In this document: positions 653-32,046 of the stretch, piece after piece
Layout: each line of letters begins with the position of its first letter
How positions within the stretch are numbered: the stretch's first letter is position 1
IMG/VR virus record: IMGVR_UViG_3300022862_000019
Coordinates: 1-32,104 of that record
Source: a virus
Taxonomy: Duplodnaviria; Caudoviricetes
Length of the DNA: 32,104 nt
Strand: one strand, 5' to 3'
Notes under the pieces: model-generated
Told to the model about the DNA's origin: nothing
Database searches by the model: none
Seen by the model: only the letters and a program-made list of their open reading frames with translations
Translations under genes and position numbers: made by a program

Positions 653-1267
653 ATGAAGAAATTTTTCAAAATTGGATGCGGAGCAATAATTGCATTAATC
701 ATTCTTGGAGCAATTATAGGTGCGCTCGGTGGCGGTGATGATTCATCGAAGGATAAAGAGAGTGAAAAACAGCCGGTTTCCACAGAAGTTGAAAAGAAAG
801 ATGAAACAAAGCCTGTTGAAAAAGAAAAAGAAGAAAAAGAACAAGCTGTTGGAATTGGTACTGCTTTAGAAGTAGGAGATGCAGTATTTACACTAAACGG
901 AGTTGAATTAGCAGACCAGGTAGGACCTTCTGTATTACCTACAAAAGCAAGTGGAAAATACATCGTACTAGATGTCACTTACAAAAATAATGGGAACAAA
1001 GCTGTAACAATCGACTCTAGTTTCTTTAAATTAAAACGTGGCGAAAAAACATATGAAGCTGATAGCGTTGCGAGTATGTCCGCTAACCAAGGTGAAGATG
1101 GTAATATTCAAAATAGCTTCTTCTTACAAGAAGTAAACCCGGATATGGAGATTAAGGGTAAAGTTGTGTTTGATCTTGCACCTGAAGTTGCTGAGTCAAC
1201 TGATTTACAGTTACAAGTGCAAACAGGTATCTGGGGAACTGAAACAGGCATGATAAACTTAAAATAA
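653..1267 (+). CDS. Membrane-anchored DUF4352 (Mpt63-like Ig fold) protein, lysogenic moron
   Basis: N-terminal hydrophobic anchor, charged linker, 'GKYIVLDVTYKNNGNKAVTIDSSFFKL...VNPDMEIKGKVVFDL' pattern; opposite strand to the phage late genes; good SD. Confidence 0.8.
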   Translation: MKKFFKIGCGAIIALIILGAIIGALGGGDDSSKDKESEKQPVSTEVEKKDETKPVEKEKEEKEQAVGIGTALEVGDAVFTLNGVELADQVGPSVLPTKASGKYIVLDVTYKNNGNKAVTIDSSFFKLKRGEKTYEADSVASMSANQGEDGNIQNSFFLQEVNPDMEIKGKVVFDLAPEVAESTDLQLQVQTGIWGTETGMINLK

Positions 1268-3300: not shown

Positions 3301-5178
3301 TTATGATAATTTCACTGAGCCAACCGTTCTTCCATTTTCTTTCACAATGAGAAAACCACCTGAATAAGAAATACCCATCCCTGGTGATTCGGAACGTACA
3401 AGTCCTATTAGATTAGTTGTATACGGAACGTTTAATGTACCATAAATAGTGTTATAACCATTTATCTCATTGCTAGTTCCATTCAATCTAACGTTAGGCG
3501 AGGATAGCTCTAAATAACTGCCATTGTAGGTAATGTTTGAACCACTACCGAATTGGACTGATTTAGTTCCCCAGCCATCTGCACCAAGCGTCAGGTTGTT
3601 ACCGATTATAGCATCTCTATTTACTCGAATATCTGTAGATCCTTCAATACTACCATTCACCATTACAGCACCATTCATATTGATCTTTTGAGCATTGATT
3701 GTGACTGAATAAGGATCCTGATTAATCATACTTATTATTGTTGAGCCAGTATAATCTGTGTAAGATACCTTTGATGTAATTTGGTTACTCATCTGTGTAA
3801 TGCTTGACTGGGCGCTACTCATTTGAGTATTTAGGCCACCAATTTGAGTACTATGAGAAGTAACAGTGGATTGGATACCACTGGCCGTAATTTCTAAACG
3901 TGAAACATCTTCTTTAACTGAATTAATGCCACCGTTTATTGTTGTCACTTCTGACCTTACTTCTGCTCTTATTTGAGCAGCTGTTTGAGAAATAGACGAG
4001 CTCAGACGCGTTTCCATACTTCCCATGTCTGTATTGATATTCGTTACATGTTGCGTCATTTCGGTTCGTAATTCTCGCGCTGTAAGACTTACCATAGCTG
4101 TATATTCTGTGGTAATATTTTTTTCTAATTCAGTGACTGTTTCAGATAACTCCCAACGGGACTCGCGCTGGATAATTTCTTTGGTCTGATCAATATTCTC
4201 GTTGACATTATCTTCAGTATCTTTGATTTGATCTTGTAGAATCTCTTCAGCTGTTTTAAATACATAGTTTCCTACGTTTACGCTTGTAGCAACAAATTCC
4301 TCACCGTTCCATTCTTCACGAACCTTCAATATTCGTGTAGTTATGGATAGGTCATCCATAGGCTCGTAGATCGTGTGAATGGTTTCCCCTAACTCATGCG
4401 TCTCACCTAATTGAGCAATGTCCAACTCGTACGAAATATCAATATCCTGAAACTTAGCTTTTGCACGCTCATACGCTTCCTCATACGTTTTAATGCGCTC
4501 ATCGTTGATGATGTCACCATAAATAGCCCGATCATAATTACCGGCCGTTGCCGATTCAAAGGTCGCTGTTTGCTGCAGATCTTCACCGTAATTGACGATG
4601 ATATGAGTTGCTAGATTTGTAGAGATAGAATCCTTAGTTAGATTTCTTAGGTTATAAGCATATCGATACTGTTGACCATAATCTTCACTCAATGATTTTC
4701 TAATCACGAACACTCGACCTGGCATTAGACCGAATTCAACCTGTAATCTGTTGCATAAATCCCTAAACAGTTTCCAGACATTACTACGCCCAAAATCCTT
4801 TAACTCAATGCTTGATTCAACACCTGCAGCAACAAAATTAAAGGTCCATCCTGTACCTGCCAACAAGGCACTGAACACTTCATTTGGTGTATAGGTACCT
4901 GTCAATCTCTCATTAAAAGGCGTCCCAGCAAGATCCATAACAATGTGTAAGGCACTAAAGTTTTTGTAATTTGTTTTATTACTCAACTTTTTAATACGGT
5001 ACTCATGGTCATTAACAATTACAATTGCTTCTTCTTGTAGATATGGATAAGCAGGATTGTTTGCCCTGTTCACAACAACCATATTCAGCTCATGAGCATT
5101 ACTGATTTCTTGATCAATACGGCCTGATTGAATATGGTTGATTGGATATTCAATACCTTTATGTTTTACTAACGGCAT
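3301..5178 (-). CDS. Tal-like prophage tail (endopeptidase-family) hub protein with coiled-coil and gp58-like repeats
   Basis: N-terminal prophage-tail motifs (QYRYAYNLRNL, ELGETIHTIYEP, TTRILKV), heptad region, 'IISMINQDP.SVTINAQKINMNG'. Confidence 0.8.
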   Translation of the reverse strand: MPLVKHKGIEYPINHIQSGRIDQEISNAHELNMVVVNRANNPAYPYLQEEAIVIVNDHEYRIKKLSNKTNYKNFSALHIVMDLAGTPFNERLTGTYTPNEVFSALLAGTGWTFNFVAAGVESSIELKDFGRSNVWKLFRDLCNRLQVEFGLMPGRVFVIRKSLSEDYGQQYRYAYNLRNLTKDSISTNLATHIIVNYGEDLQQTATFESATAGNYDRAIYGDIINDERIKTYEEAYERAKAKFQDIDISYELDIAQLGETHELGETIHTIYEPMDDLSITTRILKVREEWNGEEFVATSVNVGNYVFKTAEEILQDQIKDTEDNVNENIDQTKEIIQRESRWELSETVTELEKNITTEYTAMVSLTARELRTEMTQHVTNINTDMGSMETRLSSSISQTAAQIRAEVRSEVTTINGGINSVKEDVSRLEITASGIQSTVTSHSTQIGGLNTQMSSAQSSITQMSNQITSKVSYTDYTGSTIISMINQDPYSVTINAQKINMNGAVMVNGSIEGSTDIRVNRDAIIGNNLTLGADGWGTKSVQFGSGSNITYNGSYLELSSPNVRLNGTSNEINGYNTIYGTLNVPYTTNLIGLVRSESPGMGISYSGGFLIVKENGRTVGSVKLS

Positions 5179-24755: not shown

Positions 24756-24971
24756 ATGGGTAAGCAAGTGACCGTAAGAGAAGTTCTTCAAAAGTTAAAG
24801 AAGAACGGATTCATAAAATCCCCCACACATAAGGGTGGAGGAAGTCATCAAAGGTACATACACCAAGATGACCCAACTCGTTTCGCTGACATAAGTTATA
24901 AACGAGATGGTGAAGTTATCAAACGTGGTACTCTAAAGAGTATCGAGCAGACTTCAGGGGTTAAGTTCTAA
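24756..24971 (+). CDS. hicA: HicA-family toxin (RNase)
   Basis: 71 aa basic protein with GSH motif and 'I.RGTLKSI.Q.SG' end. Confidence 0.88.
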   Translation: MGKQVTVREVLQKLKKNGFIKSPTHKGGGSHQRYIHQDDPTRFADISYKRDGEVIKRGTLKSIEQTSGVKF

Positions 24972-25038
24972 CCCCTCTCTGCTTTGCCTAATCCTTACCT
25001 CCATAGATCATTATTTAATTCAAATTTAAAAAGAAGAG

Positions 25039-25479
25039 GTGTTTACTTTGAGATATCCAAATCATTTTATCTATCCAGTTGTTGCTGAAGTAGCTGAAAG
25101 TAATTACTCGTTTTACTTCCCTGATTTTCCTGGGACAGCAATAACTGCTGAAGATATTTCAACAGGTATTAAAGAAGCAAAAGAGATGTTGGCATTCCGA
25201 ATTCTAGAATTAGAAGAGAAGGATTCACCAATTCCTGCCCCTTCAGCTCCTGACAAGATTGAGTTATTCGACACTACTGATCGAATTATATTCGTTGATG
25301 TTTATATGCCGCCTTATCGGAATGAGGCAGCTAGTAAAGCTGTTACAAAAAATTGTACTCTTCCACGATGGCTTAGAGATGCAGCTGAAGATGCTGGACT
25401 TAACTTCTCTCAAATTCTACAAGCTTCTCTCAAAGATGCTCTAGGGTTAGAACAAAACGACAAAAAAGCAGCCAATTAA
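25039..25479 (+). CDS. hicB: HicB-family antitoxin
   Basis: 'YP.V......Y...FPDFPG..T.......I..AKE.L' and C-terminal 'KN.TLP.WL...AE..GLNFSQ.LQ..L'. Confidence 0.92.
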   Translation: MFTLRYPNHFIYPVVAEVAESNYSFYFPDFPGTAITAEDISTGIKEAKEMLAFRILELEEKDSPIPAPSAPDKIELFDTTDRIIFVDVYMPPYRNEAASKAVTKNCTLPRWLRDAAEDAGLNFSQILQASLKDALGLEQNDKKAAN

Positions 25480-31692: not shown

Positions 31693-31721
31693 TTGACAAA
31701 ATTTTAAAGTTAATCTATAAT
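31693..31721 (+). promoter_or_regulatory. Consensus sigma-A promoter
   Basis: TTGACA (31693-31698), 17-bp spacer, TATAAT (31716-31721). Confidence 0.9.
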
Positions 31722-31727
31722 CTATTA

Positions 31728-32042
31728 ATACTTTAAGTAAGTATACATCAGTTGTAGGTTCGAGCCCTGCACTCCTCGCCGAGAAAATAAACATTGCTCT
31801 GAGTAGCAAGTACTGGATTATTGGTATTTTTATTGCTAATTCTCTATCAATTGCTATGACGAAAACATGGGAATCATTAACTAAAGAAATTCGGGAGTTG
31901 ATTGTTATGGTAATGTTTACTACTATCACGCTATTAGTCTATGTGGCTTCTGAGGAGTTAGTTTAAAATTGGTAAAACGGTTGATATAAGAAACCAAGAC
32001 TAATAGCACCTAATTCATCTCTTTCGAGCGATGAATTTTTTT
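31728..32042 (+). ncRNA. Circularly permuted tRNA-like RNA (3' half 31747-31780, 5' half 31952-31985) enclosing about 170 nt
   Basis: T-arm GTAGG-TTCGAGC-CCTGC followed by ACTCCTC-G-CC; downstream GAGGAGT-TA-GTTT-AAAATTGGTA-AAAC-G; acceptor strands are 7/7 complementary; bounded by promoter and terminator. Confidence 0.8.
31856..31966 (+). CDS. Putative small hydrophobic peptide inside the permuted tRNA-like RNA (start uncertain)
   Basis: Frame open 31721-31966; ATG 31856 gives 36 aa; ATG 31907 with SD GGGAG gives 19 aa MVMFTTITLLVYVASEELV. Confidence 0.4.
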   Translation: MTKTWESLTKEIRELIVMVMFTTITLLVYVASEELV

Positions 32043-32046
32043 ATTT
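32012..32046 (+). terminator. Intrinsic terminator of the tRNA-like unit
   Basis: AATTCATC-N10-GATGAATT followed by a T run. Confidence 0.8.

Follow-up and report, generated by a model that had tools for sequence, protein, structure and literature searches.

Transfer RNA (tRNA) genes and tRNA-like genes in circularly permuted order, with the 3' half upstream of the 5' half, have been described in several settings. In the permuted tRNA genes of algae and Archaea, a 3' half, an intervening sequence and a 5' half follow one another; the intervening 1-74 nucleotides (nt) are removed at the acceptor stem as waste, and the outer ends are spliced to rebuild the anticodon (PMC3978253). YrlA RNAs place the T arm before the D arm and have no anticodon, the Mycobacterium smegmatis one with a 7-bp acceptor stem (PMC4201824), and two-piece transfer-messenger RNA (tmRNA) combines a permuted gene, an anticodon-less tRNA-like domain and a reading frame without an upstream start of its own (PMC3985003). 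In the DRT2 system, Wilkinson et al. recognized the Neo frames by units whose length is a multiple of three (3n), by the absence of a stop, and by an internal ribosome-binding site and start (PMC12039810). Here we examine a permuted tRNA-like unit at positions 31,693 to 32,046, plus strand, of IMG/VR virus record IMGVR_UViG_3300022862_000019 (Caudoviricetes; positions 1 to 32,104 of the record, a stretch of 32,104 nt that we call the window throughout), in which the sequence between the two tRNA halves is, by its pattern of substitution, a selected reading frame.

Judged from its sequence, this unit comes closest to DRT2 in the way it works and to YrlA and two-piece tmRNA in its construction, and it differs from each in a defining feature, so that an earlier note on this DNA, made by a model from the letters alone, was right to place it in none of the tmRNA, YrlA and permuted-tRNA families. 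The likeness to DRT2 lies in a small RNA with a permuted, stop-less 3n unit, an internal ribosome-binding site and start, a defence-island context and a predicted toxic repeat protein; unlike DRT2, the unit stands between tRNA halves, occupies the transcribed strand and has a product with two predicted hydrophobic helices, with no adjacent reverse transcriptase (RT) and no promoter across the junction. Where YrlA closes its acceptor stem with a loop, this unit has a reading frame of 171-174 nt. Ro60/TROVE (PF05731) was found in 0 of 10 host genomes, drafts that may be incomplete, and in none of the neighbouring or window proteins, as the earlier note had said of the window; the Ro-binding motif GNCGAAN0-1G occurs in 0 of 11 leaders and 1 of 11 tails, and the Rfam YrlA models gave no match at E<=10 in the window region and none at E<=1 in 8 homologous loci. 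In contrast to two-piece tmRNA, the third acceptor pair is G3-C70 in 11 of 11 copies (G3-U70 had already been reported absent here), the D arm is ordinary, and the frame lies in the intervening segment and not in the coding piece. No tag frame or pseudoknot was found 3' of the acceptor 5' strand, where only about 60 nt remain before the terminator; ARAGORN called no tmRNA, and the only Rfam tmRNA match was a 17-nt stretch of the T arm (13.6 bits) in locus L148. Unlike the algal and archaeal permuted tRNAs, the unit lacks a conserved anticodon arm, and selection falls on the intervening sequence. The unit is real, conserved and apparently undescribed: no description was found in the literature, including the available part of a 2026 review of defence systems (PMC13434031), in a search of full text that left supplementary candidate lists and most subscription papers outside its reach.

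All statistics refer to 11 distinct intact DNA copies from phages and Bacillales genomes; near or exact duplicates (L002, L139, L121 and L145) and the broken copies L125, L151 and L153 were omitted, and two weak profile matches (L147, without tRNA halves, and L155) were dropped. In the window the T arm occupies 31754-31770 (stem 31754-31758/31766-31770, loop 31759-31765) and is followed by the 3' strand of the acceptor stem (positions 66-72; 31771-31777) and by the discriminator purine and C74-C75 (31778-31780). Beyond the insert come the acceptor 5' strand (positions 1-7; 31952-31958), which forms 7 of 7 pairs with the 3' strand, and then, at 31959-31979, U8-A9, the D arm (stem 31961-31964/31975-31978, with GG in the loop) and position 26. 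The earlier note had recognized all of these elements at these sites, except that it ran the D arm to 31979, although the 3' strand of the D stem stops at 31978. Across the copies the 16 named pairs amount to 176 cells, every one of them paired, against 36-54% in slid controls, and 4 of the 16 pairs show changes on both sides: the T and acceptor stems covary (3 of 5 T-stem pairs are changed on both sides, and acceptor pair 7-66 covaries in 4 of 11 copies), and the D stem, being invariant, gives no evidence for pairing. In 19 members known only as proteins, the residues that span pair 5-68 are Leu/Glu in 11, Pro/Gly in 6, Ser/Gly in 1 and Arg/Ala in 1, all Watson-Crick compatible, and their codons suggest that this pair covaries as well.

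Covariation thus supports what the earlier note had proposed, a conserved stand-alone, anticodon-less mimic of a permuted tRNA. Two of its details did not carry over to the family. The pairing of GTTGAT with ATCAGT in place of an anticodon stem is not conserved across the copies, nor is any other pairing of the outer ends, and re-ordered joins give inconsistent anticodons. The ending CCG instead of CCA holds for the window (G31781) and is not general: C74-C75 is invariant (11 of 11), the discriminator at position 73 is G in ten copies and A in one, and position 76 is A in six, G in three and C in two, so that CCA is encoded in 6 of 11 copies. The permuted-tRNA scanner gave a single match in the window, and dinucleotide shuffles gave 0 of 150 under strict and 1 of 150 under loose settings. 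ARAGORN made no call on the native unit and called a tRNA in 9 of 9 joins of the re-ordered halves, eight of them flagged as low-scoring; Rfam gave no relevant match at E<=10 in the unit region of the window.

The sequence between the halves behaves as a coding sequence. Counted after C75, the insert runs in the window from 31781 to 31951, which yields the 171 nt of the earlier note, though not if the count starts after 31781. It measures 171 nt in four copies and 174 nt in seven, that is 57 or 58 codons, with one frame open in 11 of 11 at nucleotide identities of 63-98%, and hydropathy shows two hydrophobic stretches in its peptide, predicted to be helices. All seven whole copies that were found without a peptide query (L002, L004, L121-L124 and L133) have an open 3n insert, and its indels are three separate 3-nt events, one of them upstream of the Shine-Dalgarno (SD) sequence. 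The ratio of nonsynonymous to synonymous change (dN/dS), from pooled and non-independent pairs, is 0.21 for codons 3-25, 0.39 for codons 26-42 and 0.50 from codon 43 to the end. In codons 3-25 the variable columns fall 15/5/18 on codon positions 1/2/3, the frame has 0 stops where the remaining two sense frames have 20 and 24, and the silent fraction is 0.48 against 0.20+/-0.06, a value reached in 0 of 2000 column shuffles (codons 1-42 also gave 0 of 2000). Among stored proteins, a sample biased toward open frames, 19 of 25 hold a whole 57/58-codon unit between tRNA halves. On these sequence data the insert is a selected reading frame and not a spacer. RNAalifold found only three short, weak hairpins in it. 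Its peptide gave only single-member weak matches in Pfam, PADLOC, PHROGs, NCBIfam and PDB sequences, with Atlas matches below 0.9, and no longer protein containing the unit, such as DNA-encoded repeats, was seen among 8000 candidates, which is a weak test. Two other coding arrangements were rejected: an upstream +1-frame mini-ORF (open reading frame) with frameshifting, of which the window lacks the ATG and has a stop inside and which is shifted in L124, and an antisense frame, which has stops in 5 of 8 copies examined.

Where this frame is started is its most unusual property. In the window no in-frame ATG, GTG or TTG occurs between the -10 box and codon 26; 4 of 11 copies have an in-frame stop 14 codons ahead of the insert; the upstream GTG or TTG codons of six copies stand in three different places, none with an SD; and the ATG at codon 26 has an SD in none of the copies. 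The only strong SD precedes ATG43 (codon 42 in L152) in 11 of 11 copies. In the window it lies at 31893-31900, ahead of the ATG at 31907-31909, and its duplex with the anti-SD motif has an energy of -6.9 to -8.9 kcal/mol, the strongest of the in-frame starts in every copy. Codon 39 is GAG in 11 of 11, though GAA is twice as common in the window phage. On uncut RNA the frame ends at a TAA within the D arm (31964-31966), so a linear product from the internal ATG would have 19 residues in the window and 19-20 in the family. The best-conserved codons of the insert thus lie upstream of its sole strong start. Read head to tail, the insert has one frame that runs through the junction without a stop in all 8 copies tested, and this reading accounts for the conserved codons. 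With its boundary set after C75, the insert carries in its sequence the signs that were used for DRT2 Neo.

How might such a unit be processed? C74-C75 pairs with the L15 loop of Bacillus subtilis RNase P RNA (PMC1874595), and the permuted Mycobacterium smegmatis YrlA, with its 7-bp acceptor stem, is a substrate of RNase P (PMC4201824); a cut before G1, just ahead of 31952, is therefore likely. RNase P at 31952, as the earlier note suggested, is accordingly plausible given the 7-bp stem and the invariant C74-C75, and its companion cut by RNase Z at 31778 is disfavoured because the B. subtilis enzyme cleaves trailers that start with CC poorly and cuts CCA precursors after CCA (PMC7479834). A non-intron RNA ring is known from Bacillus altitudinis, where the enzymes that make it are unknown (PMC10504365); this RNA, DucS, is a precedent for the ring, but is a non-coding regulator with variable 5' junctions and, in the available part of that paper, no reported tRNA-like domain.

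We give even chances to a scheme in which the insert is closed into a ring and translated by the rolling circle into a stop-less membrane polyprotein, with predicted arrest of phage-infected cells. Host RNase P would first cut before G1 by means of the 7-bp stem and C74-C75. At rest, a short frame without a stop would remain, CC would block RNase Z, and the insert would be broken down like the 3' trailer of a tRNA. An RNA-processing or repair enzyme brought by an incoming phage, the most likely trigger, would then release an in-frame 5' end on the insert, after C75 or in an equivalent register, and this end would be ligated to the 3' end. Ribosomes starting at codon 43 would pass the junction into codons 1-42 and meet no stop, making a chain of 57-58-residue repeats, each with two hydrophobic helices, and the polymer may harm the membrane, or clog insertion and ribosomes, as in abortive infection. 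Large phages carry RNA repair enzymes, and since no partner enzyme travels with the unit, the joining activity would be supplied by the invader. The full picture, a one-gene, RNA-only antiphage trap whose loop is fed to host RNase P and which lets a phage repair enzyme make the circular mRNA for an endless, lethal membrane protein, we put forward more tentatively, as something that could well prove wrong.

Several points weigh against this scheme and against the evidence on which it builds. With the canonical cuts, by RNase P at G1 and after N73 or after N76, the ring would measure 3n+2, and a +1-frame TAA or TGA at insert nt 8-10 (31788-31790 in the window), present in 11 of 11 copies, would end translation of such a ring two to three codons past the junction; an endless frame therefore needs the after-C75 register, an equivalent displacement of both ends, or a single extra base. 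No enzyme known to us produces a ligatable end by cutting a tRNA precursor after C75. No gene for a ligase or partner enzyme is found among the scanned neighbours, RtcB occurs in only 2 of 10 host genomes, and 4 of 10 have weak matches to PF09414 (ATP-dependent ligase). The 3n length of the insert itself depends on placing its boundary after C75, and P0002 and P0005, among the stored proteins, are out of frame at one end. In the selection tests the sequence pairs are not independent, the silent excess is not significant in codons 26-42 (489 of 2000 shuffles) or from codon 43 to the end (117 of 2000), and a high silent fraction (0.42) is likewise obtained for the T arm when it is read in the same frame, so that RNA constraint can inflate this measure. 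Met43 is absent in 6 of 19 whole protein units (Met45 is kept, and five have Val42), and no clear defence system stands next to L122, L123 or L151. The transcript, the ring, the joining enzyme and the toxicity are all predicted. Public runs are neutral either way: none with RNA is listed for the L123 copy, and four contig-only runs, which do not cover the window copy, held no joint of the insert's 3' end to its 5' end.

The most serious alternative, which we nonetheless consider unlikely, dispenses with the ring: acting like an internal ribosome entry site or the tmRNA resume codon, the tRNA-like domain would position the ribosome where the insert begins, and start-less linear translation would yield one two-helix toxin of 57-61 residues ending at the D-arm TAA, with RNase P cleavage as the off switch and the internal SD-ATG making a regulator or antitoxin of 19-20 residues. 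This would explain selection on codons 3-25 and the D-arm stop with no need of a ligase, and it fits the encoded CCA in 6 of 11 copies and the ATT at codon 5 in 10 of 11. Codon 5, however, has no SD and is CTT in L012, and the stop position differs in P0002 and P0005. The tmRNA parallel also fares poorly: G3-U70 occurs in 0 of 11 copies, the D arm is tRNA-like, no pseudoknots were found, and the frame stands 5' of the acceptor 5' strand, unlike in two-piece tmRNA.

Rather less probable still is that only the short peptide matters, a hydrophobic, type I toxin-like product of the SD-ATG, with the mimic making the mRNA an RNase P substrate so that the peptide builds up when tRNA processing is blocked. 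Known enzymes would suffice, and all 11 copies have the SD-ATG and a product of 19-20 residues, but the strongest protein-level selection (codons 3-25, where no copy has a stop) falls outside this peptide and is left unexplained. Also against it, the insert has only short, weak hairpins, and no longer parent protein was found, itself weak evidence. We doubt even more strongly a DRT2-like route, in which an RT acting in trans would make concatemeric DNA by copying the loop over and over, for later transcription and translation. The coding logic is that of DRT2 and the acceptor stem would juxtapose the loop ends, yet no RT is present among the 74 neighbour proteins scanned at 13 loci or among the 37 window proteins, and the in-silico junction has no conserved promoter, with weak 8/12 sites in 2 of 11 copies. 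Least probable is the earlier note's own reading, a purely non-coding decoy, sensor or uncharged-tRNA mimic whose open frame is incidental, for although the tRNA fold is real and conserved and CCA is encoded in about half of the copies, it treats as a spacer a frame with codon-level selection, 3n indels and a conserved internal ribosome-binding site and ATG, and the RNA has a varying discriminator and no anticodon loop for anticodon nucleases.

Copies of the unit were sought with patterns and profiles in viral contigs, in named genomes, in a metagenome scan, in genome samples and through protein searches. The named-genome search gave 17 matches, 11 of them by chance; those with the unit are Bacillus sp. 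AFS073361, Neobacillus niacini, Bacillus sp. CH140a_4T, Rossellomorea aquimaris and Bacillus sp. V3B, and Bacillus sp. OV166 holds a remnant. Genome samples matched in 5 of 269 members of one family (one weakly) and 6 of 401 members of the order; 301 genomes of the phylum gave no new copy except one weak match and none outside the order, and further family-level genome searches added none. Protein searches returned 24 clusters at E<=1, two of them labelled Bacillus cereus hypothetical proteins, and BLASTn of the unit gave only chance matches of 26-32 nt in named phages and none in plasmids. A two-half pattern hit 77 loci in viral contigs, 2 of which belong to the family and the others of which lack a long-insert unit by the scanner. 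A D-arm pattern hit 31, of which 3 belong to the family and most others are phage tRNA-Thr(UGU) genes with the same D-arm sequence; in the window, the D arm and the bases that follow (31959-31985) match such genes, a possible ancestor of the mimic. Other viral contigs carry permuted tRNA-like units (L025 and L082 1498+, L030 1867+, L068 85-, L069 2370-, L072 603- and L108 1737+) in which a 3-7-nt loop closes the acceptor stem, a YrlA-like layout that lies outside ARAGORN calls.

Most copies adjoin defence or toxin-antitoxin genes or occupy prophage cargo sites, in a neighbour scan that covered 74 of 124 listed neighbour proteins at 13 loci within 6 kb and that has no background rate. The neighbours include DndF and DndG (L158), Old-like ATPases (L160 and L161), type II restriction-modification (L121 and L162), BnzB (L157), a UvrD/GajB-like helicase (L156), MazF-Schlafen (L140), Doc (L164) and PDC-S02; integrases adjoin the unit in L159 and L163, with no defence match. 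An abortive-infection module is suggested because the patchy presence, the changing neighbours, the broken copies and the hydrophobic product all fit such a role.

On its minus strand the window itself carries siphophage genes for head, tail, lysis and replication, and the host is probably a member of the Bacillota, since the helicase shares about 50% identity with the helicases of Listeria and Staphylococcus phages. The unit lies directly upstream of this helicase gene, on the plus strand, at a cargo hot-spot: of five close phages (helicase identity 95-98%), two carry the unit there and three carry other cargo, which by sequence makes the unit an exchangeable cassette. Other genes at the site include a short gene just upstream of the helicase in L001 (about 3600-3900, minus strand), by eye type I toxin-like, with a hydrophobic peptide of about 32 residues and its own promoter-like site; a 277-residue gene (L004 3032-3865, minus strand, with a matching site in L005) that stands next to the unit in L004, has no match in Pfam or PADLOC and may be a further defence gene; and a 221-residue multi-pass membrane gene against the operon direction, with no family match (L002 2452-3117 and L004 1543-2208, both minus strand, and the hot-spot of L003). 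Elsewhere in the window, a HicA/HicB toxin-antitoxin pair (24756-25479, plus strand) lies between the terminase genes, opposed to the late operon, and a 204-residue gene (653-1267, plus strand; phrog_806, function unknown) just beyond the endolysin marks another cargo position.

The remaining parts of the unit complete a stand-alone transcription unit. Its sigma-70/sigma-A type promoter (TTGACA-17-TATAAT, 31693-31721) matches the consensus at 12 of 12 positions, as the earlier note had read it and as in L133, with similar hexamers in most homologues. From a predicted start site the 5' leader would run over 31728-31753 and end in a variable-loop-like AGTT that is invariant in 11 of 11 copies. 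A tail of sequence (31980-31995), nearly invariant in the 11 copies, stands in the place of the anticodon arm and shows no covariation. The claimed intrinsic terminator is present as a hairpin with a U run (32012-32046), which is weak in the window (-7.6 kcal/mol, z -2.3) and was missed by a consensus scan; it is perfect in L004 and strong in four other homologues.

Even under the alternative explanations, the full-text literature search turned up no permuted tRNA with a selected mRNA for a spacer. If the ring is real, this bacterial gene would yield its product only once the RNA has been circularized; it would be assembled from tRNA-processing signals and would need no accompanying protein gene. 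Bacteria would then have a circular mRNA that serves a biological purpose, and never-ending frames would have arisen by a second route, one independent of RT. The ring would also expose an unknown RNA-joining activity in Bacillales and define a class of defence cassettes, 300 nt long, that are given wrong starts by gene callers and escape tRNA finders.
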